IMG/VR virus record: IMGVR_UViG_3300005965_000003
From: an uncultured virus (IMG/VR IMGVR_UViG_3300005965_000003)
Lineage: Duplodnaviria > Heunggongvirae > Uroviricota > Caudoviricetes
Direction: 5' to 3' (one strand)
DNA length: 64,000 nucleotides
Made by a program: the position numbers and the translations under genes
Shown: positions 35,434 through 63,134 of the stretch, piece by piece
Layout of the letters: every line of letters begins with the position of its first letter
How positions within the stretch are numbered: position 1 is the stretch's first letter
Notes under the pieces: model-generated
What the model was told of the DNA's origin: nothing
Database searches by the model: none
The model's input: the letters and a program-made list of their open reading frames with translations, nothing else

Positions 35434-35437
35434 TCTT

Positions 35438-35501: not shown

Positions 35502-35507
35502 ACCTTT

Positions 35508-35572: not shown

Positions 35573-35586
35573 AGAAAAGGGGTTAT

Positions 35587-37151
35587 ATGTTGAGTAAATC
35601 TAATGCTCGCCGCCTGGCGGGCTCCCTGGGCGAGGATAAACTCGCCAACAACCCCGGGCATACCTGCACGGTGTGCGGGGTTGTTCTTTCCGAGGGTGAG
35701 GGAGTTGACTCCCTCACCCTCACGGGTGAGCCTCTGTGCGAGGCTCATCTCTGGGATGCAATTAATTAGCATCCTGCCGTCAGCCCATAACACGGGGGTA
35801 CGCCATCACCCCGGCAACAGAAGGCAATGTTTTCTACTGCCTGACGGCATGACCACCGTCAGGCATTTTTTATAGACTGTCGGCCTGGTCAACCGGCATT
35901 AACCCAATGGAATGGGGGTTATTATGAAAAAAGCCGCGACCGCCGCTGAACGGCGGTCAAAAAAGCGGGCCGCAGAAGCTCGCCGTAAAGCAATCTGGCG
36001 TGGGGTTTGCCTTACCCACAAGGCGGGCCGCGAGCTCGCCTTCTTCGGTATTATTACCGCTCTCGGGCTGAAGCTGCCCGAAATTGGTGCCAGCGCCTGG
36101 CACCACCTGACCGCCTTTGCGGTCAGCACTTGGATGCAGGTGCTGACCGTTTTTGGTCTCGCCTAAACGGCGGGACCGCCCCGAACGGTACCGGGGCCTA
36201 AACATAGTACCGGCAGTCATGGTTTATAGCCATGGCCGTCGCGGGCTGTACGATGCCCGTCTATGCCCCACGTACGGGGAAAACAGATAACACACTCTAA
36301 ACAGAGAGGACCACCCATGAACCAGCTAATTTTGGACGCCCTTAAACAATCACTCGCCCACAAAGAGGCGAATGACTGTGACTGTGAGAGTCTATACGGT
36401 GAGACCCAACTACAACTCCGAGAAGGGGTTGTTTATGCTGTTGTTAAGACGCACAGCATAAACCCGATGACTGACGAGCTCCCCGAGCCCGCCGAAGGTG
36501 TTAAGCGGTTCAGGGAGTACATTAACTCGGGCCACGCATTCTATTATGATTGCGTGCCACTCGCTTCATAAACCGGATGCCCATAACACGGGGGCATTAT
36601 AATACCGTGTCCACGAATAGGGACGAAACAAAACGGGTTCGTGCTGATGTGTCCCGCCCGATAGATAACATCCTAAACAGAGGAGCCTAAACATGGTTAC
36701 CAAAACACTTCCCGGTACCCTGGTTCTCAACATCCTTGAATCGGAATTCGTGGTCACGCACCACGACATCCCGCAGTTCGCGGGGGCCACTCACAACAAG
36801 TGCTTCGAGTGGCTCTTGAAGAATCAGTCGTGCTCGGTCAAAGAAGCGACCGAACATCAGGGATGGGCAATCAAGACCCGTGACGAGATCGTTGAGGATC
36901 CCGACCCCGAAACGATAGTCCGGATCGGGCGGTATGGGAAGTTCGGCTCCCGGAAAGCCATCCGGGAATTGTGTCGGGTTTCCGATACCATGCAGAAGCA
37001 GGAACGGGTGTCCGGCTTCATTGCCGGGCACAAGGTAGAGGGCTACTTCACACGGTCGGAAATTACCGACCTGTGCAAGCAGGATCCTCCCTACGAGCCT
37101 TCTCCTGAAGAGAAGGCTGCGTTCAAGGATTGGGTTGATAACCATTCATAA
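35587..37151 (+). other. four small hypothetical genes (35587, 35912, 36317, 36693), each separated by a structured spacer
   Basis: RBS-bearing + ORFs; CxxC/CxxH in 35587. Confidence 0.65.
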
Positions 37152-47144: not shown

Positions 47145-47665
47145 CCTGAAGGGGGTAACCAACCCCCCTCTACCTTGATACTCGCTAAATTCCCAATCAA
47201 TCTTCTCACTCAACAACAAAGGAGCCTATCATGGCTAAGAAAAAACTCAAGCTCAACTTTCGCACAATCGCTTTCCTCTCCGTCTCAACTCTCGGTGTCG
47301 TCGGCTGGTCCGGTCCTGACTATCAACCCCTTATCTCCGCCCGAGACTCGGGGTCACGAGTCATCACGCGAACGAAGGATAAGATCGAGGCTCTAAGGGA
47401 CTCAGCTTCCGAATGGGTAGAGGCTCTAAGGGGTCACGAGTCATCACGCCGATAGAGCCTCAGGCTCTAACACGAGTCATCACGTAGATCAGGGAGGCTC
47501 TAAGGAGTCTCCCCTTTTTATTCCAAGGCTCTACCACATATCAGGGAGGCTCTATGTGGAAACAGGCTCTAATGCAGGGATATAGTATAGCTCTTGGCTT
47601 AGCGGTACTTGCCCTGCTTGTTGACCAGGCTCTAAGAATTGTACATAAATCCGTAAAAAGGCTCT

Positions 47666-48256
47666 ATGAAAGAAACTCGAAAGGAGAACTACCCAATGAA
47701 TAACACGGTAAAAATTATCCTCACCCAAGACGGTCCCATGTCCTTGAGTGAAGATGCCCACGGATCTCTTCGCCCCGAAGTCCCCACCCGGCTTTCAGCC
47801 GAGGGGTGGGACGAACTGAATACGTTGCTTGAGAACTGTTCAGTGGAATCAGCCTGGCGCTCCGCAGATGGGTGGGAGCTTATGAGTAATCGAGGCTCTA
47901 CCATCAGTATCTATGACCTACTCAAGCCTCTGGAAGGCTCTAACGAGGATCTGGTCATGGCTTTGTGTGATGCCTTCGATACACACCTGAGTGAATACGG
48001 GTTCCAGGCTGTCGAAGCCGCCTACGATGCCAATGTCCTCTGCTGGAGAACTACCTCTCAGGTAAAACTTGAAGCACAAGTGCAGGAAATTGCGGTGAGC
48101 AAAGACTGCTACGGGTGCGGGGCTGAGCTTGAGGATTGGTATGATGTGAGTGAGGCTCTAACAGACCCTACAACGGGGTACGTAGTGCCTGAGGCTCTAT
48201 GCGAAGAATGTCTCAATACACAGGAGGAGAAAATAAGAAAGAGAACTGAAACCTAA
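47666..48256 (+). CDS. hypothetical protein with C-terminal CxxC pairs
   Basis: CYGC..CEEC. Confidence 0.65.
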   Translation: MKETRKENYPMNNTVKIILTQDGPMSLSEDAHGSLRPEVPTRLSAEGWDELNTLLENCSVESAWRSADGWELMSNRGSTISIYDLLKPLEGSNEDLVMALCDAFDTHLSEYGFQAVEAAYDANVLCWRTTSQVKLEAQVQEIAVSKDCYGCGAELEDWYDVSEALTDPTTGYVVPEALCEECLNTQEEKIRKRTET

Positions 48257-48281
48257 GGCTCTAAAACCCAGGTAAGCATCT

Positions 48282-48746
48282 ATGAGTCGCCGAAAACCCA
48301 AACGACAACCCAATATCCTTATATCCAACCCTCCGGTATCCTCTCAGGCAGCTTACCACCTTTTGGTGTGTAAGCTGGCCTCTGAGGCCGGTGAGAGACC
48401 ATTCCGCTGGTGGGAATGGGTGGCATTCAGAGCAAACTACCTAACAAATCTTGAGAGGCTCTACGGTATGCTGTGGTGTGAATACTGTGGAAAGCATCCT
48501 CTACAGATAAATGGTGAACTGTACTCTAACCAGTGTCTGGCGACGCTGGATCACATCCACGCTGTAGCACATGGAGGCTCTATCTATGATCCGAAAAATT
48601 TAGCGGTAGCCTGTCATGCCTGCAATCAAGAAAAGAATGATAGTAGGGGCTTTCACCCGAGGCTCTACCCCTACGAAAAAGAAACTATAGCATTACTCGA
48701 AAGGAGTATGTATGTCGAATCTGTCACCAAAGCTTACCCGAGGTAA
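48282..48746 (+). CDS. HNH endonuclease
   Basis: CEYCG..ATLDHIHAVAHGG..NLAVACHACNQEK. Confidence 0.9.
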   Translation: MSRRKPKRQPNILISNPPVSSQAAYHLLVCKLASEAGERPFRWWEWVAFRANYLTNLERLYGMLWCEYCGKHPLQINGELYSNQCLATLDHIHAVAHGGSIYDPKNLAVACHACNQEKNDSRGFHPRLYPYEKETIALLERSMYVESVTKAYPR

Positions 48747-49386
48747 CGAGAAGATCAAGGAGGCTCTTGTCTGGTCGATCCCCTCTGGTAAGACCTGCCC
48801 TGGAGCTACAAAGCTCTGTAGCGTGATCTGTTATGCCAGACAGTCGGAGATACAGTATCACAATGTTGTCCCACCGAGTCGCTGGCATAATCTGAGGCTC
48901 ACCAAACGGGCTGACTTTGCCGAGATCATGATCAAGGCTCTAAAGAGACGGCGCTACCGGGCGTTGCGGATACATGAGAGTGGTGACTTCTACTCTCAGG
49001 TGTACCTCAACAAGTGGGTAGGGATCATCAAGGCTCTACCGGAATGGATCTTTTGGGCTTACACGAAGTCTCACTCGCTGGACTTCTCCGAGGCTCTAAA
49101 GCTCCCCAACCTCAACCTGAGGTATTCGGTGGATGCCACCACAAAGAAGTATCCCAAACAGGATATGCCGCTGGCTCACCTGTCCATGCATCAGCCTGAC
49201 GGTGCCTTCGAGTGTCCCGGCACCGGAGCTGCTGGCGGGATCAAGTGTGCCAGAGATTGCAAGGTTTGTATGGAAACCTCTAAATCAATCTGGTTTCACC
49301 CCCATGGGACGCACCGAAAGAAGATTGAACGCTTCGAGAGTATCACTCCAGAGCACGAGTCATCACGTATTCTGGCTGGGGCTTAA
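48712..49386 (+). CDS. phage Gp88-like Fe-S/radical-SAM-related protein
   Basis: TCPGAT..C...CYA, RIHESGDFYS, WAYTKS, C-terminal Cys cluster and HG. Confidence 0.8.
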   Translation: MSNLSPKLTRGNEKIKEALVWSIPSGKTCPGATKLCSVICYARQSEIQYHNVVPPSRWHNLRLTKRADFAEIMIKALKRRRYRALRIHESGDFYSQVYLNKWVGIIKALPEWIFWAYTKSHSLDFSEALKLPNLNLRYSVDATTKKYPKQDMPLAHLSMHQPDGAFECPGTGAAGGIKCARDCKVCMETSKSIWFHPHGTHRKKIERFESITPEHESSRILAGA

Positions 49387-49411
49387 CGGCTCCAGCCTCT
49401 AAGGAGGCTCT

Positions 49412-52400
49412 ATGAATTACTGTCATGTCCCGGAGAACATCCGGGACATCATCAACAATTCTACTGAGGGCACACAGCAGGAATGCTATGATGCTATCGA
49501 GGAAGCAAAGGACTGGGAAGAAGCAAAGATGAATGTGAAAAATGCTCTCTACAATCTTGAGAGTGAATCTAAACGTATAAGGGAGGCTCTATCATGAGTG
49601 GATTTGTGAAGTATTCAAAGCCCATCGACTTTCAGACCATGAAGAAAGAAATGGAAGCCCGCCTCAAGGATTACCGGGAGAGTGTGAAATTCTTTCGGCT
49701 GGTTTATGGAATCCTCAAGGGATGGGAAGGAAAGCAGATCAGTAAGCGGATGACTACCTATGTCGATAAGCAGTTGCCCGAGAACACATGGTCGGCATTG
49801 GAGTTCAGTTTTTCCTCAATCTCAATGAGGTTCTACCGGAAGCAGACCGAACCCACATACAGAAACGAGCGGTTCATGACTCTTTCAATAGGGTCTGTGG
49901 ATAACAAGACATTCTCAATGGATGCCTTGAATATCGAGGTGGATTCTTACCAGTCACTTGAGGAGTCCGCCGACAAGCTGGAAGTGGGACTCAAGGCTCT
50001 ACCGCTCTTCGTGAAGGAATACAACGAGATTCTTTCCAGAGCACAGGCTTTGGTGGAAGAAGCGACTAAGGTCAAAATGGAGTATGACTTCGACATCATA
50101 ACGAGAGGGACAAATGAACCGGATTCAGCTCAAGACTCTAAGAGAACAGATTCAGGAAAATATCCGAAGAAGGAGAAGACATCGATGAATAACAAACAAC
50201 GACACGAAACCTTTGACGAGGCTCTAAAGATTCTTAAACAGGACTGGATGGATGCCCGACCGGGAAGCGCTCACAAGCAGAAGCTTTCCCATGTCTATGC
50301 AAGCCTCAAGAAGATTGCAGAGGAACGTACTCGGGTGGCTGTCTTCATGGACGGTGGACTGATCCAAGAAATATACTCCGACTCCCCGGTAGAGGTCATG
50401 AAGATCGACCTCGACGTCGAGGGGGCTGAAGAAGAAGAAGAGCTGACCACCTATCCCGACCGGGAAGGTGTGGCTAATAAAGCCTACATCTCGCTGGAAA
50501 AATCCGGGTACGGGGTGGATGTAGATGAAGAGTACATCGATACCCTGTGGAACAACCTCAACAAGGAGGACTGATGAGTAACCGAGCAATCCTGACAGCC
50601 ATGAAGTTCGAGGCTCTAAGCGGGGATGTGTCCTATGGATACACCCTGTCCGATGAGTATGCTCTGGACTACGATAACAATTCTGAAGCCATGATCGAAG
50701 ATGACCTCGACCTGCTCCGCTATGCCCTCAAGAACGCGGGCAACGGCGGGGATGAAATCCTTGGCAGTGTCAGGGATAACGAGAAAGGTATACAGATCAA
50801 TGACCAGTGGTATGACTGGGAAGAAATCGAATCCATTATGGAAGGAGATGAACAATGAATAACGAAGCCGCTGTGATCATCGTCATGGATAATGACAACC
50901 TCATGGATACCATCCTCGTGCCCAATGGGCATGAGGATGATCGGGCGGAGAAGGTCTTCGCCAAAACCTGCCAGCTCCACCTCCATGCTACCGCTAAATT
51001 CCCCCGAAGATGCAAACTTTGATGGGGGCTACATGAAGAAGGGGAATATGTATGTCATGCTCACATGGCCCCGACTGCCTGAGTATGAGTATGAGAATCG
51101 GTGTCGGGTCTGTGCCCATGATGTGAGGTTCTGGTACAAGGGTGAAGAACCAATCACCGATGAGATCAAAGAGATCATGAATGAGGAAGCAGAGAGCCGG
51201 GCAAAAGATATGATCATTGAGGACTATACCTCCGGTGAACTCAATCTGGAAAATGATGAATACTCTTTCCGAGGATGGTGGGAAATTGAAAAACAGTAAC
51301 CTGGCTTTCGAGATAACCGTGGAGGACGTGATAAACGTCCTCCGCAAAGAGAACAGAATCGCTCAACTCAGTAGAGTGGAAGAACTCTATAACGAGCTGG
51401 ACTTTGGAGCCATTGAGAAAGAGGCTCTATACGGAGATGACATCGATGAACAGACAGAGTATGCGTATGATGCCATTTGGGAACAAATCAAAGGGAGGCT
51501 CTAATGAATCCGAATGCTTGTGAAGAGTCGATCAAGGCTCTAAGCGATCTGCTCCATCAGTATCACGCACAGGAAAAGTGTGGTATGCAGTCCGTACTGC
51601 GGGATGTGTTGACAGACCTGCGCCATGCAGCCCATGAAAGGCATCTGGACATCGATAAGGCAATCGAAGGCTCCCGGATGGTATGGGAATCAGAAATGGG
51701 ACGATGGTTCGTGCCCGGCATGGAAGTCATGGTGGACTCCCCCCCGAATGAAAAAGCCTGCTGGAACAATGAGTTCCGGGGGACCATCGTTAAGGTCAGC
51801 CAGGAAAGAAAGATGTATGATGCAGGCAGGAATGAATATTCCTGCTACTGCACCGTCAAAGATCAGGAAGACAACCACTACGATATCGATTACAAGTATG
51901 TTCATCCTATGGAAAAGGAGGACTGAATGGGAGACTCTAAGATGTCTTTTGAAGAAATGGAACAGAAGTATGTCCTAAACAATGGGCTGACCTGCCTCAA
52001 CCCTGAGTGTGACGGCACAGACTTCGAGGGAGGCTCTATCAAAATCGATGGACCCATCGCTGTACAATCCATTACCTGCAACAAATGTGGATCTTCATGG
52101 AGCGACATCTACAAGTTGCAAGGTGTAGATGACGTGGAGCTGGAAAATGAATGAGATAAAACGTATGGATCTCATGAGATTCAGAGTGCTCTACATCCCT
52201 GTGGGTGTAGAGCATCCCCACTTTCCGGCAGTCAAACACGAGAAGCCTATTGTAGAGTTCTATGATATGCTTTACCAGCATACACCCGATGGGCAGTTCA
52301 CGGGGGGACGCTACTATATAGAGACTCTACTGGAAGACTCCGAGCGTCTAAGAGTAACAGGACTTTCCCTCGAAGGATCAATTCCTTCATGGGTAATCTT

Positions 52401-54641
52401 TCCTACAGAAATGAACAATACCTTGAACTGGATTGAAGCATTGCAAAAGGAATCCGAATGATCAATAACCGCAAGAAGCTGGAGAACTACCGCAAGCTAC
52501 TCCAAGAAAGATATGAGGCTCTAACAAAAGAACTCATGGGTCGAGAAGCCGATTATGAGAAATTCGAAGACCGACACCACGGAACAGGACGGGGAACATA
52601 CACAAAAGAATATGTGGATGCGTCCAATATCTCAGACTCCCTCAAGGTACGTATGGCTGTCGATGACTTCCAGACTATCCTCAAAGAAATCAAGAAACTC
52701 GCTGCCAAATAAGGAGGCTCTATGAGCAAGTACATCTGCGGAATGTGTGGTGGTACCGAAGCCGATTTATTTAGGAGGCTCTAAAATGATTGAATCCACA
52801 ATCGAATACAAGATCCCCTTCAAGGATGGTATAGAGGGTATAGAGTACGTGGAAGATTGAGTATGCACAAATCCAACATTGCCAAAGTGAAATGTATGGA
52901 ATGCAATGAGTTCTTTCCCCCCGAGGATTTCGAGGGGGAAGACCTCACTAAGCAGGCCATTCATAAGAAATGTGGACGACTGACTGTCTGTCCAATCTTC
53001 ATTATACATCCCATAAATGAAAGGATAATATGAACACCAAGATCGCCTACATGTATCGTGACGGTGACAACTACAAACAATACGAGGAAGTCGTCATCCC
53101 CGGAGAGATCACCGACGAAGACAAGGCTCTAATCCTCAGCAAGCGGGATGAGGGTCAATACTTCATCCCCTCTCAGGTAGGACTCAATGACTTGCAGGAA
53201 AGAATGTGCTCACCCATCGGGGACTCAGACCATGTGTGGCATGAGCTGGAAGAAGAAGATATCTCCCACACCCATGATGACCCCACCCCTAACCACGGCT
53301 TTGATAATATCTCGGAGCTGGTGGAAAGGTTCAAGGCTCTAAAAGAGTGGGATATCATGGGCGCTACCAAAGATCACAATTTTAATCCCGAACAGTAATA
53401 TTCTTTCACAATCAAACAAATGGAGGACAATATGTCCCGTACGGTAGAAATCTATCTGTCTGACCTCACCGAAGAGAAACAGCAGGAAGTCCTTGAGGCT
53501 TCCGGACTCTCATCCGCCGACAACTGGGATGTATCACCTCTGGCTATCCTCGAATACGAGGACGAACCCTATGAAGAATAAACGCTTCACCATCCCCCGG
53601 TCCTCTAAATATGCCCGACACCTTTGGGGTCGGGCAGGGACCCTCCTTAAAGAAACACCCACACAGGTATACGATTATGCAAATAATCGTATAAAAGACT
53701 CTAAAGAATACTGGCTCAAGTTTGATGAGCCTGTACCAGCCAAGGATGAGTTCGGGCATGACTCCCCTCTGGCTGGTTGGGAAGGCATATGGATATCCAA
53801 GGAACTCATAACCGAAGCGGAGGACAACTGATATGAATAAGAATTGTAACGACTGCGGGGTATTGCTCCCCACCGATGCCAAAGGATCACTGTGCGTCTA
53901 TTGTGAGAAATCAAAAGAACGCAGAGAAGAACACAGAGCCTCTTGGATCTCCTACAATGAACCCGAGGCTATGAAAGAACTCAAGCCCGGTATGTATCTC
54001 GGTCTGTACCATGGATTCAAGAACGAGCAAGAACGACAAGAGACAGAGGATTGGGGAGCCAATGGCCCCTGTATAGGTCCCCTCGTCTTTGCCCATACCA
54101 CCTATGCGGCTCACATCAAACTGCGCTTCAAGGATGATGAGACGGCTCAGAGATTCGGCTTTAATGAAGCCGATGACTTTAATGAGATAAAGATTAAAGG
54201 AGATGTCGTAGAATACGATGGTATGGAATACGGAGACTGGACCTGCTTCACCCACCCCACCCCGGAGATGAAATGACTAAACGTAAGTACGGGTATATCA
54301 TTACCCAAAAAGGTGCCCCCCAACTCACAAAGAATATCGGTGACTCCTATACTTTTCTGGTGCCGGTAAGCATTCAAACAGATAACAATAAACAAAGAGA
54401 AACTCTTGAGGAAGTCACTCACATTTTCTATAACTCAGATAAAGGATGGGTACCGTACCTGAGTACATGCGAAAGTGACTACAGTACCCTGCTCTTTGAT
54501 TCCGATGAAGATGCCGAACTGCTCTCCGAAATGGCTCAAGCCCTCGGGGACAAAGCCATCAGCCAGATGTTCTATACGGCTGAATGCATCTGGAAAGCAG
54601 CACCCCAGGAGTTCTCTATCACAGATGAAGATATCCTCTAA
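49412..54641 (+). other. array of small acidic hypothetical genes (49412, 49594, 50574, 51504, 51927, 52458, 53030, 53833, 54273 and others)
   Basis: Co-oriented overlapping ORFs; several starts use GGAGGCTCTATG. Confidence 0.65.
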
Positions 54642-54921
54642 GACACAAGTCATCACGTATTATCAAGGCTCTAACACAAACAAGGAGACTCTATGAACAA
54701 GGCTCTAACCTATAAGACTGAAGACTTCCGAGTCATCACCGATACAGACATGACCCACTGCCGCTCCACCCGCTGAGGAAGTGATCCAATTGATCATCAC
54801 CAAACTCAAACGTGGAGAGTATCAGTAAGTATACGAGGCTCTATCCTTAGAGCCTCTATCCCTCCTCCCACCACCACGGGGAGGGTCTAACCAAGGATCT
54901 AACACCCAACAAGGAGGCTCT

Positions 54922-55719
54922 ATGAGCACCCGTGGTAATGTCACTATCAAAACAAAACATGGGACTTTCATGTATGAAATCCCCTCCTCAGCAGATGAGA
55001 TGGACAACATTAAGCTGCTTGAGAACTGGTCTGGAGATATGCCCGAACTCCAGGAACTCCATATGAATCCCGGTCACGTAGGAAATCCCTCCATCTTCCT
55101 CGATGTCGATGCCATCAAAGGTACCCTGACCATCAGGAAAGCTCAATCCTTTTGGGTCAATGCCCCTGAGGATTGGAGAGAACGTGGGTATATCTGCTAC
55201 CAGAGCGATAAAGACTATAAGCAGTGGGGATACCACTCATGGAGAAGAGGTAATGTAATCATGAGACATACCTATCCCGAGGCTCTAACAACTCCCGGAG
55301 CCGCCCCCGACTGGCTCTATACCAAAGAGGACATGAAGGAACTGGCAAGTATCTTCCAAGGCTCTAACGGGTACAGCCAAGCCGCCTACCTCATGAAGAA
55401 AGTCTCAGCCGTAAAAGAACTGGTACCGGTCTTGTTTGGACCCTATACCAAAGAGGAAATGAAGGAACTGGCAAGTATCTCCCAAGGCTATAACGGGTAC
55501 AGCCAAGGCTCTAACGGGTACAGCCAAGCCGCCTACCTCATGAAGAAAGAATACAAGTACGACCCTCAGAAGATTTATCTGTGGCTCTCAGCCGTAAAAG
55601 AACTGGTACCGGTCTTGTTTGGACCCTATGAAGAACTCCCTACCATGCTCAACTCATGGGAACCTATCAAATCAATCGCCATCTGGCGGATGAAAATGAA
55701 TGAAAGGAAAGCAGTATAA
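54922..55719 (+). CDS. hypothetical protein with recent internal duplication
   Basis: MKELASI.QG.NGYSQ and SAVKELVPVLFGPY each occur twice; tail EELPTML..AIWRMK. Confidence 0.75.
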   Translation: MSTRGNVTIKTKHGTFMYEIPSSADEMDNIKLLENWSGDMPELQELHMNPGHVGNPSIFLDVDAIKGTLTIRKAQSFWVNAPEDWRERGYICYQSDKDYKQWGYHSWRRGNVIMRHTYPEALTTPGAAPDWLYTKEDMKELASIFQGSNGYSQAAYLMKKVSAVKELVPVLFGPYTKEEMKELASISQGYNGYSQGSNGYSQAAYLMKKEYKYDPQKIYLWLSAVKELVPVLFGPYEELPTMLNSWEPIKSIAIWRMKMNERKAV

Positions 55720-56180
55720 ATGCTGCACAAAAACTACTACGGCATTTTCGGCCTTGCACCAGTAAAATTCGGCGCAAGGCTCTCTAAACCGATCCTAAAC
55801 CAGTCCTAAACGGAGGTACACGAATGAAAAACGTCCAAATCCCGATGCAGTTTGATGAAGAGGCTCTAAAAAACCTCAGAGAGCAGAAAAATGAGCTGAT
55901 TAGGGCAAGAAATAATGATGCTCTCTCAGAAAATGTAGAGGGTATCATACACATGATCGACCACATCCAGGATTATTTGGCGGACAACAAGATATTTCCT
56001 GAAAATGTGGTATTCGACAAGGGATTGCGAAGACTGGCAGTATGAAGTAGCAAACAATGATACCCGCCTCGGGTATCATGAGTGGGTCGAAAAGAAAAAA
56101 GAAGAAGATTCGTAATCAAATAAGTATATTGTTATTGGTTGTTCCCTTTTACCTCCATTTAAGGTGCAACCGACTCCGAC

Positions 56181-56218
56181 GGCCCCAAGGAGCCACCACC
56201 TCCGAGGGGCCTTTTTTT
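56181..56218 (+). terminator. intrinsic terminator
   Basis: GGCCCC..GGAG/CTCC..GGGGCC followed by T7. Confidence 0.7.
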
Positions 56219-56261
56219 ATGTCTGAGGAATCGGACCCAATCAACAAAGGAGCAAGTAATC

Positions 56262-56705
56262 ATGACTACCAAAACTATTAAAGAATTCATCATCAAGTTT
56301 AATGAAGACCTCGAATGGAATATCGTAGGCGAAAAACCTACCCCTAAAGAATGGGATCTCTTAGAGGAATATATGAAGCCCACCGTAAAAGCCGTAGATA
56401 ACGGTATCGGCTATTATGAGTATGGTTCCATATGTGCCACACATACCCAAATAGAACCCGAAGTCCAGGAAGAAGGAGAAACCCTCAAAATTAAAGCGCT
56501 GATATCAAATAGCGAACTCCTCAATATGACCCCCGAAGAAATCATTTATGAGTTCTTGGAATACCAAGACTACATCCCAAGCACATACCAATGGAGTACC
56601 CCCAGAAATGAAGTCTCCTGTGACTTCGAACTCGAATGCATCAAAGCTCACTACTCTCCTGAAGATAAAGCAGTAATAGCCGAAATAGGATACGTAGAAG
56701 CCTGA
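56262..56705 (+). CDS. acidic hypothetical protein
   Basis: AAGGAG RBS, 147 aa. Confidence 0.7.
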   Translation: MTTKTIKEFIIKFNEDLEWNIVGEKPTPKEWDLLEEYMKPTVKAVDNGIGYYEYGSICATHTQIEPEVQEEGETLKIKALISNSELLNMTPEEIIYEFLEYQDYIPSTYQWSTPRNEVSCDFELECIKAHYSPEDKAVIAEIGYVEA

Positions 56706-56713
56706 CACCCCCA

Positions 56714-56739
56714 AAATTCTTCCACAGGTGGAAGAATTT
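56714..56739. promoter_or_regulatory. 26-bp palindromic site AAATTCTTCCAC-NN-GTGGAAGAATTT; also 56798, 57035, partial 57303, 59108, 59222
   Basis: Perfect 12-bp arms in three copies. Confidence 0.85.
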
Positions 56740-57343
56740 CGGGGGTACCCCCTCCCTTTTACCCCCCAAGTCCACAAGTCATCACGTAAAACATACAAAA
56801 TTCTTCCACAGGTGGAAGAATTTCGCACCCCCCAAGGCTCTAACAGAAAGGATTTACTATGTCCAAGGCTCTACCCCAAGGGTATGAGGAAGAAGCAGAT
56901 GAATACGCATCCATAGGTTATATCCTGTGGTACGATGAAAAAAAACCACAATACTGGATAACTGATATGGGTGGTGAAGAAATAACCACCTTTAGAAACC
57001 TCGAAGAAGCCAAAAAATGGAGACTCAACCATTAAAATTCTTCCACCTGTGGAAGAATTTCCAACATCCGGGAGGATTAAACATGCCCTTCTACAAAAAC
57101 CAAATCCTCGTAAATGGAAAAGAAAGAAAAGTCAGTAACAATATCACAGATGACAAAACAATCGCACTCGAAAGACACGAAAAAGCCGTAGCATGGGCTG
57201 AACAGTATTCCACTACCTTTGGATACTCCGTTACTGTGAACCTATACAAAGATAATAACCCCATCCTTTCCGTAGATTACGAATACTAAAAACACCCATA
57301 TACTTCCACCTGTGGAAGATTTCCTAACACCCAGGAGGTAAAC

Positions 57344-57883
57344 ATGACCCTCAGAAAAGGCGACAGGGTAGCTTTCAAAAACCAAGGCTCTATCTTCTCC
57401 AGAACCGTGGTCAAAGGAGGCTCTAAAAGAATCCATGTCATACGTGATGGTGGTGAGTATGAAGTAAAAGGACCACCCGAATGCTTCAAGAAGGTAGATA
57501 TACCACTACCAAAAGACCCACCCTCCCCCATGGATAAATACCAAGTCATCAGCTATAACGAGATCCCAGGACACGGAGATACCCCCACTTTCTCCGCTAC
57601 CATCACTAAAGACGGTATACCCATCCTGAAAGCCTCTAACGATGGGTGGGGTGGCTCTAACTGCTATGATCCCATCTCCTCAGGCTATAAAGAAGAAGTC
57701 TGGAAGTTCAAAGATGCCGCAAAAATATGGGCCCTCCAGTTCGGGGCATCCAATCCCCTCGAAGCTGAAGACCTATGGATAGATTGGTACGTAAATAAAC
57801 GCCCTTATGCCGTCACTGCCCAAGCATATTGGGAGGAATACAACGAAATGATCAACCCTAAAGGAGGTACCCCTATCGATTAA
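57344..57883 (+). CDS. hypothetical protein
   Basis: AGGAGG RBS; NDGWGG motif. Confidence 0.75.
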   Translation: MTLRKGDRVAFKNQGSIFSRTVVKGGSKRIHVIRDGGEYEVKGPPECFKKVDIPLPKDPPSPMDKYQVISYNEIPGHGDTPTFSATITKDGIPILKASNDGWGGSNCYDPISSGYKEEVWKFKDAAKIWALQFGASNPLEAEDLWIDWYVNKRPYAVTAQAYWEEYNEMINPKGGTPID

Positions 57884-58014
57884 TTGACTGCCTCTGTCTC
57901 TTTTATTCACTTTTCCCAAAGGTACCCTATCCCTATTTAATTGAATGCTCTTAAATAATACCCGTATACCGATGGGGTACCACCCAAAACCAAACCAATC
58001 ATGGAGGTAAAACC

Positions 58015-58287
58015 ATGGCAACAGCAACCAAATCCACCAAAAACAACATCATCCAGACCAAAAACGGACCCCGGACCTACAATTTCGGTCCCGTGAAACT
58101 CGGTACCATCACCTACAGCAACAAAAAGAAGGCCATCATCCAGCTTCTAAAGCGATCCAAGATGTCCCAACATGAAATCGCCCTCAAGATCGGAGTCACC
58201 GAAGCCCGTGTGTCTCAGGTGAAGAAGGAACAGGGCCTCAGAACGCCCGAAGGGCGTGTCGTAGGCTCTAAAAAGCGCATCCGGTAA
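58015..58287 (+). CDS. small basic helix-turn-helix DNA-binding protein
   Basis: MSQHEIALKIGVTEARVSQVK; GGAGG RBS. Confidence 0.8.
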   Translation: MATATKSTKNNIIQTKNGPRTYNFGPVKLGTITYSNKKKAIIQLLKRSKMSQHEIALKIGVTEARVSQVKKEQGLRTPEGRVVGSKKRIR

Positions 58288-58536
58288 CCCAACTAGGGTA
58301 CCCCCCTCCAAAATGTCTCTGTGGGCTTTTAAAAAGCTCTCAGGGGCAAGGGGTACCCCCTACCTTCTCCAAGGGTTTATATCTATGATGTACGTCCTCA
58401 CAGTCCTTCTCATCATCATTATCGTGATGATGTTAGGTATGTGGCAAGGATTAGTCACAATGAATACCAACATGGTAAAATGTCTCAGGGCTATACAGAT
58501 AGAAATAAAGGCTCTAAAAACCAATAAGGAGGATCT

Positions 58537-58971
58537 ATGATTATGATATCTCTGAACATCGTTATCATTCTGCTGGTTCTGTGGTCGATACTCTGGAACT
58601 ATAAGATGATGAATAACCTTTATAACGAAGTTATAGAGAAGTCATCCATACTCAGAGAGAAGATCGACTTCCAGGAAAGAAAGGTAGAAGGCTTCGGTAC
58701 AAAACTCCAAGGCTCTTATGCCATGGGTGAAGCTATGTGTAGGAGAGTAGATATACTATCCAAGGATATAGACTCCCAATCCAAAATGCTTACCGGTTTA
58801 TGTGTCTCTCTCATACCCCCCGATAAAATGGATGCCTTCTTCACTACACTGGATGAATACCAGAAGATGAGAAAGAAGTTCACCCAATCCCCTCCCCCGC
58901 CTACGGCGGATGAGAAAAGCTCCCATACCCAAGGCTCTACCAATTCCGATCCTGGCTCTAACGATTCCTGA
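58537..58971 (+). CDS. membrane-anchored coiled-coil protein
   Basis: N-terminal hydrophobic helix. Confidence 0.65.
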   Translation: MIMISLNIVIILLVLWSILWNYKMMNNLYNEVIEKSSILREKIDFQERKVEGFGTKLQGSYAMGEAMCRRVDILSKDIDSQSKMLTGLCVSLIPPDKMDAFFTTLDEYQKMRKKFTQSPPPPTADEKSSHTQGSTNSDPGSNDS

Positions 58972-59076
58972 TAGGATCTTAGATCAAGTATAGGTAAAAT
59001 ACTCCTACCCCCCTCCATTCTCTTCGCGCCAAAGGCGCATCGAGGGTGGGGGGAAAGGTGGGGGGTACCACACATG

Positions 59077-59104
59077 CCATCTATTAAGATTGCTTAATAG
59101 ATGG
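59077..59104. other. perfect 12-bp inverted repeat at a strand-skew switch; candidate origin element
   Basis: CCATCTATTAAG-ATTG-CTTAATAGATGG. Confidence 0.6.
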
Positions 59105-59660
59105 TCGAAATTCTTCCACAGGTGGACAAATTTGGGTATAGGAGGCTCTAAATTCTCCGGGCGCGTCAGCGCGGGGAGGGTTTTGAGGGTCTAACAGTAA
59201 ATTTTGGTGGTCTGTGGGGAGATTCTTCCACAGGTGGTCGAATGTGGCGCAAACGAATAGATCAGGATCATTTATTTGGAGTGGACTAAATTAATAGGTT
59301 ATCTTCCTATTATTTATCTATACTCCACCCCTCCCCGCCTTCGGCGGATAGGAGAGGCACTTAAAGGGGTATTCAAATGCATACCCAAGGGTTATCTTCA
59401 AGAGTATGCAGGTAATGCATAGAGATTCATTTAACATCTTAAACATCTGGATCATATCACATGACCGGATGTATATGGCTGTAGGAATGAGTGTATCGTA
59501 TTCGCTTCTATGGAGTGGGTTAGTGAAGCGTATATCGGTGAGTAGCTTTTGGGATAGATTATGGTATGCCGTAGGTGGAGCTATAGGGACGTATGTAGCT
59601 TTGTTACTCAAGGACTTTTTATAGGGGAGGTTGGGGGATATGTCGGAAAAGGGATTATGT

Positions 59661-60092
59661 ATGAGGTTGGTGACAATCTGTACAGATGGAGCGTGTTCTT
59701 GTAATCCCGGTATAGGTGGATGGGCGGTGTCATTGACAGCACGTCCTAAGGATGTGGATAGGATACGTACACGTTTTATATCGGGGTATGAGAATGACAC
59801 TACCAACAATCGTATGGAGCTTATGGCGGCTATACGGGGGTTGGAGGTATTGAAGGAGCCCTGTCGGGTAGTATTGCATAGTGATTCACAGTATTTGGTT
59901 AAGACCATGACTAAGGGGTGGTCGAGGAAAAAGAATCATGATTTATGGGCGAGTCTTGATGAGTTGAGTCGTATCCATGATATAGATTGGCAATGGGTGA
60001 GGGGTCATTCTACTCATGCGGGTAATAACAAGGTGGATGAGTTAGCGGTTCGGGCTATACGGGAGCGTGGTGGGGTGGATTACTATTCCTGA
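59661..60092 (+). CDS. rnhA: ribonuclease HI
   Basis: TDGACSCNPGIGGW, TTNNRMELMAAI, SDSQYL, WVRGH, N..VDELA. Confidence 0.97.
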   Translation: MRLVTICTDGACSCNPGIGGWAVSLTARPKDVDRIRTRFISGYENDTTNNRMELMAAIRGLEVLKEPCRVVLHSDSQYLVKTMTKGWSRKKNHDLWASLDELSRIHDIDWQWVRGHSTHAGNNKVDELAVRAIRERGGVDYYS

Positions 60093-60609
60093 TGCGGGAG
60101 GTTGATGATGCCTGTATGGATGATAGCTCTGCTTGTTGTGTACAGTATGGTAGCTACGGTGTTAGTCTACTTGATGGGTCTGAATATGGGTAGGGCTGTA
60201 CGGAGGTTGGAGTGGGTACGGGGTTATGTGCGTTGTCCTAAGCACATTTGCAAGAACCTGAACCGGAAGTGTCATATTTGTGTACGTCGTTCTTGTATAG
60301 ATATGTTTGAAGAGATAGAGGGAGATGGGATCACAAATAAGAAGTGAGAAGATTTAATTATTAATTTCTAAAAAGTATCTTGTATTGTGAGGAGGTATTA
60401 AATGATAGTAGACACTGATGCGTTGCTTCGAGCGATAGAGTATTATGAGGACTCCGAGGTTCCTGATTGGGAAACCTGCCCCATCTCCACACTCAATGCC
60501 GCAGAGCGGCGGGCACTTAATAGACGAGAGGTCATAGAGAGATTCTGTGCGTTGGCAGAAGAGTTCGGTGATTCGATAGTGGAATCCGGCGATGGGGGAG
60601 GTAAAAGCG

Positions 60610-61071
60610 ATGCAGACAATCATGACATCTCGTAAGCAGGTGCCTGCGGTATTCAAGAAGGTATCGTGGGTATCGGGTATGCGGAATCTGGATATGGGTG
60701 CGGGTCGGTATCCTGAGTTGTTTACTGAGGCTTTGGCATCAGTAGGGGTGGAGAATCATTCATACGACCCGAACAATCCTTTTATCTCACAGATGCCTGA
60801 GGGGCAGTTTGATACGGTAACGATCAGCAATGTATTGAATGTCATAGATACCTGGCGGGGGAGGATCAGTCTGGTATCGGGGGCATTGTCTAAGGCTCCT
60901 GTGGTTTATATCACGGTGTATGAGGGTGATCGTTCGAGAGAGGGCAGGGAGACTCGTGATGGTTACCAGATGAATCAGCCTCTGAGGTTCTACCTGGATG
61001 AGATCATCGAATACTTCCTTTTCATTAGCATACAGATGAAGAATGGAGTTTTGACCCTCGGGAGGATTTGA
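60610..61071 (+). CDS. small class I SAM-dependent methyltransferase
   Basis: NLDMGAGR, YDP, FDTVTISNVLNVI, TVYEGD. Confidence 0.8.
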   Translation: MQTIMTSRKQVPAVFKKVSWVSGMRNLDMGAGRYPELFTEALASVGVENHSYDPNNPFISQMPEGQFDTVTISNVLNVIDTWRGRISLVSGALSKAPVVYITVYEGDRSREGRETRDGYQMNQPLRFYLDEIIEYFLFISIQMKNGVLTLGRI

Positions 61072-61791
61072 TTGGAATTTTTTCGGATAGTATTTATGAT
61101 GGCCTTTCCTTTGGCTGTCATATATTTGGTGGTAATGATAGCCGCGAGGGTTGACTGGATCAATCCTTTAAGTTGGGGGGTGAGTGAGGTACTTCTGGCG
61201 TATGTATTAACCATAGGGTTTATACTTTTCGTTACCTCCTGTCTTGTACTGGTAGAGTACCGGGAGTATGGTGTATACTTAGCTTTCTTTTTTGGTTCCA
61301 CCTTGGCTACTCAGAGATACAGTGTAGTATTACCGTTGCTTTTCCACATCATTTCTTTGTTCTTAATGGGTGGGATGGTTTATCAATTCTTTCTTTAGGG
61401 GGTGCCTTTATGGGATTCATTACTTGATGCTTTAGCGTGGGGAATAATAGGGTTTATCGTTGGTGTGGTAGTGGAGAGGGTGCTTAGCGGGATTCATAAG
61501 AAAAAGGATAGCTGATGCGTTGCTTACGGTGATGGTACAAGGATACACCTTGTTATGCTCACACGCAATTTGAGCGTATTCATAGTGATTGCCGGATCGG
61601 CAAACACCTGATGAAGGTACAGGAGGAAAAGGTATGAGTGATACATTCAAGCAGACTTTAAAGAGGATAGCTGAGAGTCGTGGGATATCTTATGGTGATG
61701 TCCTGAGAAAGTGGGAATCCTACAAGTATGATTTCATGATGGGGAAGTTCATCACTCCCCCTAACCTGGAGACTTTTCAGGAGGATTATGT

Positions 61792-62118
61792 ATGAATCAG
61801 GCAGAAAAGGACAAGCGTTTTAAGATGTTTGTGGCTGCTGTTACTCGTACCTATCGTCCTTCGGGATCGTATGGGAAGGGTAACAAGTGGATACCATCTC
61901 AAGGGGAGCTACAGCCTTGTTGTGAGCATGTGAGGGCACCTTCACATGCTTATCCTCTATCCATGAAGCGTCATTGTGGGACACGCAAGCATGTGGTGGA
62001 GGTCTTGCGGAACTGTTATCAGATCACGAAGTATGAGGATTTGCCTTTGCTTCTTTCCCAGGATAATGCTTTGGGGAAAGCGGCGAGGGATGTATTAACG
62101 GGTTTTTCATTCAATTAA
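61792..62118 (+). CDS. hypothetical protein
   Basis: CC..VRAPS..YP.S...HC.T.KH; tail YEDLPLLL. Confidence 0.7.
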   Translation: MNQAEKDKRFKMFVAAVTRTYRPSGSYGKGNKWIPSQGELQPCCEHVRAPSHAYPLSMKRHCGTRKHVVEVLRNCYQITKYEDLPLLLSQDNALGKAARDVLTGFSFN

Positions 62119-62783
62119 GGAGGGGTAGATGCCACCTTTCACTTTCATTATTGATCGTCCTTCACTTGTGGGTGAGGCGGTAATGCAGATACTTCTTGAG
62201 CGAGAGTACGATTTTGATGTACGCAGGACATTGACTCAGGGGTTGGTAGTTACCGTACACAGTCCACGGTCCACGGTATGAGGACATACAGAGGATCAGG
62301 GGTATGGAGAAAGTACGGACTTAATAAATGGAGGTACTGATGTACGAAACAACGGTGTCGGTGAGCTTGAAGGTTTCGGTAAAGGTGGAGAGTGAGATAC
62401 ATCCGCAAGACCTTACGGTTAAGGAGATGCGTTTTCTGGCGGCTAATGCAGTTGCTGAGCTTAGCGAGGCAGATATAGACAAGGGAATTACTTCGGTGTC
62501 GGTGGGGCGCACTACGGCGAAGAAGAAAGAGCCGGTTGAGAAGAAGGTGTCCCGGATAGCTTCTCTTTCCCCCTGAGATGCAGGCACGTATCGGTAATCT
62601 TTTCAGTTGCCTTTCCCCCGAGAACTTGTCTGGTGACGGGGAATACAGTCGGGCACAGGTGGAGCGGAGGTTGGCTGATCTGAAGCGGGAGTGGAGGGCG
62701 ATTAATAAGGAGGTAGGTTTTCAGGTGAGTGAGGCTGAGTATTGGGCGTGGGAGTTCAGTAAGCATTGTAAGGAGGAGAGGAA

Positions 62784-63134
62784 ATGATTGATACAATCGT
62801 GAGGGCGGTAGACGGTACTTACATCGATCTATCGAGGGTGGTAGCGATTCTTCCGGTGGAGGAGCTCCCACATTATTTTGGAGGCTTGTACGGGTATGAT
62901 GTAATGTTTTTGCCTGAGGGTATTCCTTTCAAGCAGGACCAGACATTCTCGGTGACAATTAGCAAGAGGTTCGGAAGGCCACCTGAGCTAAGGCGAGAGT
63001 ATACAGAATTTGGTGGAATCACAGATAAGGGCAGGGAGATACTGGAATCTTTTAATCAGAAGTGTATAGCGGAGATGGAACTGTCTCGTGAATCTCTGGC
63101 TAATCAGTGGCGGGGATACAGGAAGCAGGTTTAA
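62784..63134 (+). CDS. hypothetical protein
   Basis: RBS, 116 aa. Confidence 0.65.
   Translation: MIDTIVRAVDGTYIDLSRVVAILPVEELPHYFGGLYGYDVMFLPEGIPFKQDQTFSVTISKRFGRPPELRREYTEFGGITDKGREILESFNQKCIAEMELSRESLANQWRGYRKQV

Follow-up and report, generated by a model that had tools for sequence, protein, structure and literature searches.

A sharp strand-composition switch at a hairpin-rich gap between two co-directional gene blocks of an uncultured Caudoviricetes genome

Introduction

Transcript-primed replication origins include those of ColE1 (RNA II), the T7 primary origin, T4 oriF and oriG, and mitochondrial CSB II. Rho-independent terminators and the RNase III sites of T7 are examples of intergenic hairpins at which early phage transcripts are terminated or processed. 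To our knowledge, the replication origins of large uncultured phages have almost never been mapped, and we know of few phage genomes in which strand bias can be separated from gene direction, most being unable to provide this separation. In one study, about 30% of huge-phage genomes have a skew that points to bidirectional replication, and skew is accepted there as an indicator of an origin (PMC7162821). At the inner end of the left terminal repeat of phage T5, a preprint describes a large untranslated region (repeat region 3), rich in repeats and palindromes, that acts as an injection stop signal and carries paired DnaA boxes in inverted repeats (bioRxiv 10.1101/866236).

Here we examine a locus in an uncultured salt-lake phage (IMG/VR record IMGVR_UViG_3300005965_000003) for which an original prediction, made from the letters alone, had proposed a replication origin, possibly R-loop primed, next to a partition-like domain. 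The window is the whole 64,000-nucleotide stretch analysed; together with a further 1.4 kb (64 kb + 1.4 kb in all) it belongs to a contig that is at least 134,268 nt long.

Results

A conserved non-coding gap separates two gene blocks

Tiling of open reading frames placed the locus in the longest ORF-free gap of the 47–65 kb region (Table 1), and its 434 bp agree with the ~400 largely non-coding bp that had been described. This gap is a real boundary between two gene blocks that run in the same direction and have opposite strand composition. The last gene of the left block gave zero matches in Pfam and PHROG searches, and its relatives (78%, 68% and 51% identity) were present on short contigs only. 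The first gene of the right block matched phrog_6764 weakly (E 7e-5), and a search for its relatives returned only itself. The statement that rnhA follows was correct as to the RNase HI gene (Pfam RNase_H, E 1.9e-32; phrog_531, E 4.9e-44), with the 72-aa ORF intervening between this gene and the gap. RNase H is a gene common in phages; 1636 homologues were found at E ≤ 1e-10, the best three at 94%, 76% and 76% identity. The contigs on which the protein relatives of RNase H and of the 144-aa ORF lie are short and differ in length. Within the gap, small ORFs that encode (K/R)FFHRW(T/S)N twice were rejected as by-products of a DNA repeat, because they have TTG or GTG starts and no ribosome-binding site. 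A 920-aa protein gave no match in a phage search, and a search of the right block for repeats returned nothing notable.

Table 1. Positions of the features in and around the gap.
Feature	Position	Strand	Description
Last gene of the left block, 144 aa	58537..58971	+	ORF tiling; C/A-rich, AGGCTCTA-bearing block
Non-coding gap	58972-59405		434 bp; ORFs ≤ 48 aa, or antisense ORFs overlapping real genes
Hairpin 1, three-tier	58996..59072	+	RNA fold -43.4 kcal/mol, z -5.6
Hairpin 2, A+T-rich, perfect	59076..59105	+	12-nt inverted repeat 59077-59104, 4-nt loop
Operator-like site 5, degenerate palindrome copy	59107..59135	+	One mismatch to TTCCACNNGTGGAA
Final copy of the 8-mer AGGCTCTA	59143..59150	+	One-strand motif
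Hairpin 3, G+C-rich stem-loop	59150..59185	+	Followed by GGGUUUUG; weak terminator-like element
Operator-like site 6, degenerate palindrome copy	59219..59247	+	Two mismatches to palindrome core; 112 nt after site 5
A+T-rich stretch	59253..59322	.	73% A+T over 70 nt; possible promoter or unwinding region
Small hairpin CCGCC-UUCG-GGCGG	59328..59358	+	Fold -15.7 kcal/mol, z -2.0
First gene of the right block, 72 aa	59406..59624	+	G/T-rich block
RNase HI gene	59631..60092	+	Probable ATG at 59640

Two independent assemblies cross the gap: an independent metagenome contig (L001, 7573 nt, 99.77% identical) that spans 57808-65380, and a 6006-nt contig from run X1 that covers 57017-63022 with 2 differences. 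As both bridge it, the gap is not a mis-assembly. Five SNPs distinguish the window from L001 within the gap, three of them inside the A+T-rich stretch and the others at 59212 and 59216. In a ~92% relative from run X4, the gap core (58888-59371) aligned at ≥ 90% and was found beside RNase H on one 3257-nt contig, while the flanking ORFs were partly unaligned and the stretch 59406-59624 was replaced or diverged (joint 59444-59650).

Eight runs were found, all of them DNA contigs; X1–X4 were used, the small-share runs X5–X8 being set aside, also as a guide to habitat, and uncovered parts (e.g. 59601-59676 in X2) were left uninterpreted. In four runs, contig depth was ~two-fold higher to the left of ~59.6 kb than to the right (X1, 20-27 vs 11-15; X2, 12.8-13.8 vs 7.2-8.0; X4, 9.9-13.8 vs 5.3; X3, about 5 vs 1-3.7), a step that is only a hint, since depth is one figure per contig (Logan), summed over strains, and covers the sequence right of 40 kb. 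A 29-mer from the gap had 0 matches in viral_contigs and a 49-mer had 0 in genome_contigs; RNase H, the 144-aa ORF and a 664-aa methylase, used as queries in viral_contigs, returned no loci, and blastn of 56.5–64 kb against GenBank phages gave no match.

Strand composition flips in a single step

As had been proposed, the composition flips between genes that lie on the + strand on both sides. The flip is real and step-like, and strongest at synonymous sites, where the compositional class changes across the gap. At four-fold sites, the GC skew of the + strand changed from -0.50 (53–59 kb) to +0.39 (59.4–65.4 kb); in 300-nt windows it changed from -0.16 at 58800 to +0.46 at 59400. At third codon positions, the 28 genes on the left had a GC skew of -0.114 and an AT skew of +0.053, and the 14 genes on the right had values of +0.423 and -0.306. 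The skew plot that had been suggested as a check gave a sign change with the polarity of an origin: over 65 kb, the cumulative four-fold (G-C) curve reversed nowhere except at 58968, its only global minimum. The change is not gradual, as the change point of keto content (59034) is confined to a 2-lnL interval of 59012-59050 (39 nt); the change point of G versus C falls at 59042.

The flip looks mutational, unlike a codon-selection class; the G+T share of four-fold sites was 65% on the right vs 35% on the left. The two flanks of the gap were alike in GC (0.456 and 0.452), and their strand-symmetric dinucleotide signatures were the closest of all block pairs (delta* 57), which speaks against a foreign origin of the right block and in favour of a single type of DNA with mirrored strand bias. 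A regression per gene (84 genes) gave a side effect of 0.165 ± 0.033 vs an orientation effect of -0.069 ± 0.033.

The size of the bias varied along the window. Across successive blocks, GC4 on the + strand was -0.21, +0.04, -0.36, -0.12, -0.15, -0.50 and +0.39, a patchy pattern in which strong bias was absent in 1–22.8 kb and weak in 34–53 kb. The backbone at 1–22.8 kb has genes on both strands and almost no strand-specific GC4 bias; for its eight - strand genes at 8.7–22.8 kb, the + strand GC4 was +0.04. Only one - strand gene, at 30947-32008, has a codon style like that of the right block; it encodes a methyltransferase, as do two right-block genes, and its + strand GC4 of -0.67 (129 four-fold sites) follows the bias of the strand and not that of its own direction. 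The GC of the window is a mosaic (30–60%) with several sharp boundaries.

Stable hairpins follow the last stop codon of the left block

The C-tract and G-tracts that had been put forward are present, as C6 at 59008-59013 and as GAGGGTGGGGGGAAAGGTGGGGGG at 59042-59065. As marks of an origin they lose their force, both being arms of one hairpin, and the G-tracts contain no canonical G4 motif (G3+ x4, loops up to 12 nt). Within this structure, hairpin 1, the C6 pairs with two G6 tracts (59048-59053 and 59060-59065). It starts ~25 nt past the last stop codon of the left block, and the interval of the compositional change point falls inside it. None of 200 shuffles was equally stable, and among 6530 80-nt windows it ranked fifth in stability and first outside the 60%-GC stretch at 34–37 kb. 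Hairpin 2, directly after it, is formed by the perfect 12-bp inverted repeat that had been reported (arms 59077-59088 and 59093-59104) and folds into 13 bp at -16.8 kcal/mol (z -6.4); the other large non-coding boundary also contains its 12-mer, ATCTATTAAGAT, at 33353. The fold of hairpin 3 has a stability of -17.7 kcal/mol (z -2.1).

Like the hairpins of early phage transcripts, these are very stable stem-loops placed right after stop codons, between small genes of a polycistronic block. In contrast to Rho-independent terminators, hairpins 1 and 2, the two strongest in the gap, have no U-tract, and a scan for consensus terminators made zero calls in the gap, hairpins 1–3 included. Comparable G/C-tract hairpins follow other left-block stop codons (47146-47172 and 56706-56745), and the small hairpin near the right end of the gap repeats, as a 77% copy, the sequence 58890-58920 with which the upstream gene closes. 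The gap as a whole folds at -165.5 vs -130 ± 6.2 kcal/mol in shuffles (z -5.8).

Repeats, A+T-rich stretch and initiation signals

Two TTCCACAGGTGG sites had been placed at 59108 and 59222; both exist, with starts at 59114 and 59226, and sit within a direct repeat of 29 nt, whose copies (59107 and 59219) are 86% alike. They belong to a palindrome family of six copies, AAATTCTTCCAC-NN-GTGGAAGAATTT (26 bp), of which the two in the gap are degenerate and four, at 56.7–57.3 kb, are perfect and lie 20–45 nt upstream of start codons. With the best copies of the family upstream of genes 2 kb away, the sites no longer serve to mark an origin. Site 5 carries an exact 15-mer, TTCTTCCACAGGTGG, at 59111 and does not fold alone (z -0.8). 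Since the gap copies keep the exact 15-mer and have lost the hairpin, their sequence points to protein binding rather than structure, making them candidate protein-binding sites. The palindrome pattern had 0 matches in viral_contigs and 0 in genome_contigs. A 90-aa HTH protein is encoded nearby, at 58015-58287.

The AT-rich stretch of the original prediction is present at 59253 and ranks among the top 0.25% when 70-nt windows of 34–65 kb are compared, though it is not unique, being equalled or exceeded at 60338, 65019 and 56090. A scan of 58972-59405 for the sigma-70 consensus, which left phage-specific promoters outside its range, gave no match. DnaA boxes (≤ 1 mismatch) had 18 matches vs 16.8 expected, with 0 in the gap and no cluster. 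No initiator, helicase, primase or polymerase was found among the ORFs scanned, and Rfam returned nothing at E ≤ 1 for 46–64 kb.

A one-strand motif ends in the gap

GGCTCTA occurs 57 times in the whole window vs 8.0 expected, a count reached by none of 100 shuffles. Within 47389-59150 there are 55 copies of this asymmetric motif, 53 on the + strand and 2 on the - strand, the final one at 59144-59150, where the last copy had been reported. The corresponding 8-mer, AGGCTCTA, has 50 copies on the + strand and 2 on the - strand in 47.3–59.15 kb, a stretch that makes up the last 11.8 kb of the all-+ left block. It is in the sense of the mRNA strand, with 21, 13 and 5 copies in the three frames and 14 intergenic copies, and its run stops at 59150, directly before the third stem-loop. 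GGCTCTA belongs, on one strand, to a gene block of 11.8 kb that stops at the gap, and it is not specific to origins. A partition (parS/ParB-type) domain, with palindromic centromere sites beside ParA/ParB genes, is a poor match: the motif is asymmetric, confined to one strand and present in all reading frames, and none of the 19/28 left-block ORFs scanned had a ParA/ParB Pfam match.

Discussion

We tentatively read the gap as the boundary of two gene blocks or transcription units, at which hairpins end one block and a regulated restart follows (probability about 0.42). The gap would then form the right edge of a block made up of small phage genes of early type, with a differently composed block, opened by the 72-aa ORF and RNase H, to its right. 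Left-block transcripts would run ~200 nt beyond the last stop codon, crossing two exceptionally stable hairpins, the last AGGCTCTA and the third G+C-rich stem-loop, and the hairpins and this stem-loop would end or stabilise the left-block RNA. A new transcription unit may begin in the A+T-rich stretch, and a dimeric DNA-binding protein would probably control both sides via the AAATTCTTCCAC-NN-GTGGAAGAATTT family. The skew would flip at the gap because the blocks belong to different compositional classes, left genes favouring C-ending codons and right genes G/T-ending ones in a genome that is mosaic throughout, and no fork need start there.

Several observations count for such a boundary. Hairpins 1 and 2 are placed right after the last left-block stop codon, the mRNA-sense AGGCTCTA ends before the third stem-loop, and perfect palindromes lie near start codons. 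The GC is mosaic, GC4 changes block by block, and the two-strand backbone is almost unbiased. The codon style of the right block recurs in the - strand methyltransferase, and the right block itself holds two methyltransferases. The depth step fits a block that is shared unequally among strains. In the X4 relative the gap core is kept where the flanking ORFs partly are not. Against a boundary count the mutational look of the flip, the GC and dinucleotide signature shared by the flanks, and the single global minimum, which would be expected of an origin. Because the strong hairpins have no U-tract and the terminator and sigma-70 scans were empty in the gap, which also counts against it, we infer termination and restart, as we do the promoter and the binding protein. 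If the gap is no more than a block boundary, it shows that a mosaic phage genome can, with no origin present, produce a perfect origin-like skew step together with clustered hairpins and repeats that resemble one; the T5 iss region gives a like caution.

That the gap is a bidirectional origin strikes us as unlikely, yet deserving of serious consideration. Forks would diverge from the gap, so that the + strand would be leading on the right, where it is G/T-rich, and lagging on the left, where it is C/A-rich; the A+T-rich stretch would unwind, the 29-mers would bind an initiator, and a transcript could serve for priming, the adjacent RNase H trimming it. The sign, sharpness (59034 ± ~20 nt) and synonymous-site nature of the step fit the origin that had been predicted, and so do the unreversed cumulative minimum, the excess of the side effect over the orientation effect, the likeness of the flanks, and a gap, the longest of its region, that is kept in the ~92% relative and contains repeats as well as an A+T-rich stretch. 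The elements listed in support of the prediction are mostly not specific to origins: the G-tracts are hairpin arms, and the best copies of the repeat family lie near genes elsewhere. Bias of patchy size, near zero at 8.7–22.8 kb, also speaks against an origin, as do ~36 kb of genes head-on to the fork, a contig depth that steps and does not peak (a weak measure), a second origin-like non-coding region at 33.3–34.0 kb, and the fact that the sequence seen is 65 kb of at least 134 kb. The independence from gene direction comes from one gene, the - strand methyltransferase, with its 129 four-fold sites.

Like the skew origins of huge phages and bacteria (PMC7162821), the locus has a sharp intergenic cumulative minimum that is strongest at synonymous sites, and a G/T-rich strand that points away from the site on the right. 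Unlike them, it combines patchy bias and head-on left genes with a lack of DnaA boxes and of an initiator gene. With transcript-primed origins it shares G-rich RNA-sense tracts, an A+T-rich stretch downstream and an RNase H gene 230 nt away, and its first downstream kilobase, with a GC skew of +0.4 to +0.5, would favour R-loops. It differs from them in having no promoter match and no canonical G4 motif, and in that the G-tracts pair with the upstream C-tract (-43 kcal/mol). The only support for R-loop priming comes from the adjacent rnhA and from G-rich transcripts. As a candidate origin, a 0.9-unit flip at synonymous sites, placed to ~40 nt between co-directional genes, is unusually precise and testable, and it separates strand bias from gene direction.

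An improbable alternative is that the gap is the edge of a long direct terminal repeat, or of an early region of higher copy number, as at the iss of T5. Each virion DNA would hold two copies of a ~25-kb island (34.0–59.x kb), collapsed into one by the assembly, and the gap would mark a physical end or a signal for DNA transfer or processing. The two-fold depth step to the left of ~59.6 kb in four runs hints at this, within the limits of a contig-level depth summed over strains, as does the make-up of the island, which consists of small ORFan genes that run in one direction throughout. On the left the island is bounded, at 33264-34056, by a large stretch of non-coding DNA that carries 108-bp tandem repeats and at which GC jumps from 0.36 to 0.60. 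ATCTATTAAGAT, AAGGTGGGGGG and TACCCCCCT are common to both edges (4/200 shuffles gave a shared 12-mer or longer). Like the T5 region (bioRxiv 10.1101/866236), the gap is untranslated, has inverted repeats and palindromes, forms the edge of small early-type genes and looks origin-like; in contrast to it, the gap measures 434 bp (about 1.2 kb in T5), paired DnaA boxes are absent, no T5-like genes were seen, and the terminal repeat is a candidate only. The composition of the island is not uniform, and a skew flip with the sign of an origin is not accounted for by a terminal repeat alone.

Slightly more doubtful again is a composite in which a transcript-primed bidirectional origin lies at the inner edge of the ~25-kb early-gene island. 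If true, G-rich transcripts of the first downstream kilobase would form R-loops and be trimmed to primers by the phage RNase H, and a palindrome-binding protein would couple early-gene control with initiation. The island might then be the long terminal repeat of a large hypersaline phage, and the AGGCTCTA array a DNA-polarity signal tied to an end or a fork (Chi-like protection or a nicking site) and not an RNA motif.

It is very improbable that the gap encodes a structured non-coding RNA of ~190 nt, comprising hairpin 1, hairpin 2, AGGCUCUA and, with its U-run, the third stem-loop. The fold of the gap is far more stable than those of its shuffles, the third stem-loop with UUUU resembles an sRNA terminator, and the core is ≥ 90% conserved in the X4 relative; the Rfam search and the scan for an upstream promoter were empty, and hairpins that act as terminators or stabilisers would account for the structure equally well. 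An artefact, in which two phages were joined as a chimera at 59 kb or the composition fluctuated by chance, might be suspected from the very heterogeneous GC of the window and is close to refuted by the contigs L001 and X1 that cross the gap, the X4 relative that keeps its core beside RNase H, and the 39-nt interval of the change point.

Occurrence of the left-block motif elsewhere

Among the entries listed by a search of the phage literature for AGGCTCTA, all were primer-type matches. The jumbo phages Salicola phage SCTP-2 (50%) and LR745208 (52.6%), which share an RNA ligase, are no comparators, because they have no RNase H match and few AGGCTCTA copies (3 in the 440 kb of SCTP-2 and 5 in the 485 kb of LR745208). 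In the collections searched, the 50 one-strand AGGCTCTA copies of the 11.8-kb block had no counterpart, and the block deserves separate study. A scan of IMG/VR for triple AGGCTCTA arrays found at least 122 loci; none of the 122 matches listed was similar to the window by blastn, and the highest copy numbers belonged to short tandem or low-complexity arrays.

Composition reverses sharply across a conserved non-coding gap

The analysis firmly establishes that two gene blocks running in the same direction, with mirrored composition at synonymous sites, meet at the gap (58972–59405, 434 bp), a conserved non-coding boundary rich in hairpins. The left block ends with a 144-aa ORF, the right block begins with a 72-aa ORF and an RNase H gene, and no credible ORF was found in between. 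As the original prediction had it, the skew flip is real, with GC skew passing from −0.16 to +0.46 inside 600 nt (300-nt windows), and every element that it listed is present, the two TTCCACAGGTGG sites being 4–6 nt off (true starts 59114 and 59226). Third codon positions concentrate the flip (left GC skew −0.114, AT skew +0.053; right +0.423 and −0.306). At four-fold degenerate sites, + strand GC skew (GC4) goes from −0.50 (53–59 kb; 14 genes, 681 sites) to +0.39 (59.4–65.4 kb; 13 genes, 761 sites), and the G+T share from 35% to 65%. Two-segment likelihood scans placed the change point at 59034 for keto content (2-lnL interval 59012–59050) and at 59042 for G versus C.

The probability of an artefact is practically negligible, and the flip is not a mis-assembly, since an independently assembled 7573-nt metagenome contig (L001) covers 57808–65380 at 99.77% identity; within the gap it differs at five positions only, all within 59212–59322. 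A 6006-nt contig from metagenome run X1 covers 57017–63022 with two differences. In a ~92% identical relative from a microbial-mat run (X4), the gap core (58888–59371) is kept at at least 90% identity, adjoining RNase H on one 3257-nt contig, while both ORFs flanking the gap are partly replaced or more diverged; constraint on the gap is therefore no weaker than on its neighbours.

Hairpins and palindromes at the boundary

Hairpin 1 ranks fifth in stability among 6530 80-nt windows and first outside the 60%-GC stretch at 34–37 kb. No canonical G-quadruplex motif was found in its tracts, even when 12-nt loops were allowed. Other left-block stop codons also precede similar G/C-tract hairpins (47146–47172, 56706–56745). 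Scans of the gap returned no sigma-70 promoter, consensus terminator or DnaA-box cluster.

Features of the gap, the palindrome family and the second non-coding region
Feature	Position	Description	Fold energy; z
Hairpin 1	58996–59072	three-tier; C6 tract and two G6 tracts form the arms of one hairpin	−43.4 kcal/mol; −5.6
Hairpin 2		perfect inverted repeat; second strong hairpin	−16.8 kcal/mol; −6.4
Last AGGCTCTA	59143–59150	followed by hairpin 3, a weaker G+C-rich stem-loop with GGGUUUUG	z −2.1 (hairpin 3)
Right half of gap		in order after hairpin 3: second site, 73% A+T stretch, two small hairpins, 72-aa ORF	
Four perfect palindromes	56720, 56804, 57304 and a fourth (printed '41'), all within 56706–57325	each 20–45 nt upstream of a start codon	
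Second non-coding region	33264–34056	790 bp; two C6 tracts, G7 tract, GGGTTTAGGTAG repeats; GC jump 0.36 to 0.60	
108-bp tandem repeat	in 33264–34056	2.7 copies, last two 99% alike; sigma-70-like matches on − strand	

The two sites in the gap are left halves of a 26-bp palindrome, AAATTCTTCCAC-NN-GTGGAAGAATTT, which has six members in the window. The gap copies carry one and two mismatches, in the right half; because a 15-mer is retained exactly in both while neither folds (z −0.8 and +0.2), the sequences point to a putative DNA-binding dimer as the partner of this family rather than to an RNA structure. The product of a nearby gene (58015–58287), 90 aa long, weakly matches a helix-turn-helix domain. 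The perfect palindromes sit between small genes, and 57076–57340, exactly one gene between two palindromes, is absent in the X4 relative; the palindromes thus flank a strain-variable gene cassette.

An asymmetric motif runs through the left block and ends at the gap

The window holds 57 copies of GGCTCTA where 8.0 are expected; 55 of them are within 47389–59150, 53 on the + strand. Its core, AGGCTCTA, usually preceded by G or A, has 50 copies on the + and two on the − strand of an 11.8-kb run of small + strand genes. The window's other blocks hold no comparable motif, and no counterpart of the motif block was found in IMG/VR (among the matches listed), GTDB genomes or two jumbo phages. Since copies lie in each of the three frames (21, 13 and 5) and between ORFs or at ORF edges (14), the motif is a nucleic-acid signal and not a peptide; it may act either in RNA (the copies are all mRNA-sense) or in DNA (it is polar and ends at the gap). 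The description of this domain as partition-like was not upheld, because the motif is asymmetric and neither ParA nor ParB was found in the 19 of 28 block ORFs scanned.

The motif is often joined to a ribosome-binding site (GGAGGCTCTATG), and its density peaks at 47389–47666 (10 copies in 280 nt). Another short repeat, (GGGGT)CACGAGTCATCACG, has three copies at the start of the block (47345–47490), and its core, GTCATCACGT, returns before genes at 54.67 and 56.78 kb (54660–54680, 56775–56795). Inside a 265-aa ORF, a 21-nt tandem repeat, CCAAGGCTATAACGGGTACAG (55482–55528; 2.2 copies), carries block-motif variants; its copy number varies, as contigs from X4 and run X3 skip 147 nt there (55355–55503).

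Gene-block boundary or replication origin

The leading interpretation, to which we assign a probability of about 0.4, is that the gap separates blocks or transcription units and holds no origin. Left-block RNA would be ended or stabilised by the gap hairpins, beyond which would lie the target of a putative palindrome-binding regulator and an A+T-rich restart region.

That the gap is a bidirectional replication origin, as originally proposed, is possible though somewhat unlikely. In its favour are the sign, sharpness and synonymous-site nature of the flip, together with the single global minimum, at 58968, of cumulative (G−C) at four-fold sites along the full 65 kb. In a per-gene regression on 84 genes, side of 59 kb (0.165 ± 0.033) weighed more than gene direction (−0.069 ± 0.033), and once strand asymmetry is removed the two flanks are the most alike of the block pairs (Karlin delta* 57), with equal GC (0.456, 0.452). 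Skew is an accepted indicator of origins in huge phages (PMC7162821), which also speaks for an origin. The sole − strand gene within strongly biased territory, a methyltransferase by Pfam (30947–32008), carries the bias of the strand (+ strand GC4 −0.67); however, it has the G/T-ending codon style of the right block, which also contains methyltransferase genes, and an explanation by gene class therefore suits it too. Against an origin, the bias is patchy (+ strand GC4 −0.21 at 1–8.7 kb, +0.04 among the − strand genes of 8.7–22.8 kb, −0.36 at 23–33.3 kb, −0.12 at 34–47.2 kb and −0.15 at 47.2–53 kb), and the backbone, with genes in both directions, should best show replication bias yet has almost none. 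The window is also grossly mosaic (GC 30 to 60%, with a jump from 0.36 to 0.60 at 33.5–34.0 kb), so any single change in composition is, a priori, likely to mark a block junction. The scanned subset of ORFs yielded no initiator, helicase, primase or polymerase, which likewise weighs against an origin; proteins of 2066 and 920 aa had no matches. The R-loop/G-quadruplex and partition components of the original prediction were supported by no test here.

A terminal-repeat or iss-like boundary is improbable, and would be compatible with an origin; by analogy, phage T7 has its primary origin immediately beyond the early region, close to the left end. Systems for comparison are the ColE1, T7 and T4 origins, mitochondrial CSB II, T7 RNase III sites and Chi polarity. 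In all four runs (X1–X4), summed contig depth left of ~59.6 kb is about twice that on the right, with no step at 47.3 kb (depth data start at 40 kb); since contig depth is a crude measure that sums strains, the step is no more than a hint. A long terminal repeat that collapsed in assembly would fit it, as would a block present in more strains than its neighbour; a simple origin peak does not. Assembly breaks and loose ends recur at 57790–57808 in runs X2 and X3, and L001 also starts there; with the depth step, these breaks suggest strain-level block variation or a collapsed repeat. An untranslated repeat region of T5 is described as reminiscent of oriC, yet is the injection stop signal (bioRxiv 10.1101/866236), a documented case of an origin-like appearance without an origin.

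A structured RNA is very improbable; the gap has strong hairpins, and no Rfam family matched.

A second non-coding region and the phage

Three words, a 12-mer, an 11-mer and a 9-mer, are common to the gap and the region at 33264–34056 (4 of 200 shuffles gave a shared word of 12 nt or more). Candidate readings of that region are an early-promoter array, an origin or an island edge. The 60%-GC start of the island (34100–37100) is packed with perfect 10–14-bp hairpins; of the 25 most stable 80-nt windows in the 65 kb, 14 fall within it.

The window derives from a large uncultured phage, with a genome of at least 134,268 nt, because a contig of that length is recorded as carrying the 144-aa ORF that adjoins the gap. 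No GenBank phage matched 56.5–64 kb at the DNA level; DNA of the window is present in hypersaline-lake metagenome runs from three studies. Its genes include two polynucleotide kinases, an RNA ligase, several HNH endonucleases, RNase H, methyltransferases, a superoxide dismutase fusion and many small ORFans. The ligase has ~50% identity to jumbo-phage ligases, such as those of Salicola phage SCTP-2 and an uncultured 485-kb phage. It lies between the two kinase genes (2928–7899; phrog_505, E 3e-84 and 2e-89) in a cluster that looks like a tRNA-repair type module; its N-terminus also matches HNH endonuclease families, and another HNH gene lies at 3920–4627. On the − strand, at 11637–12737, one phage gene encodes an NT5C-like deoxyribonucleotidase domain in fusion with a complete Fe/Mn superoxide dismutase, with an aldo/keto reductase (10747–11634) and an M50 peptidase (7941–8705) among its neighbours.
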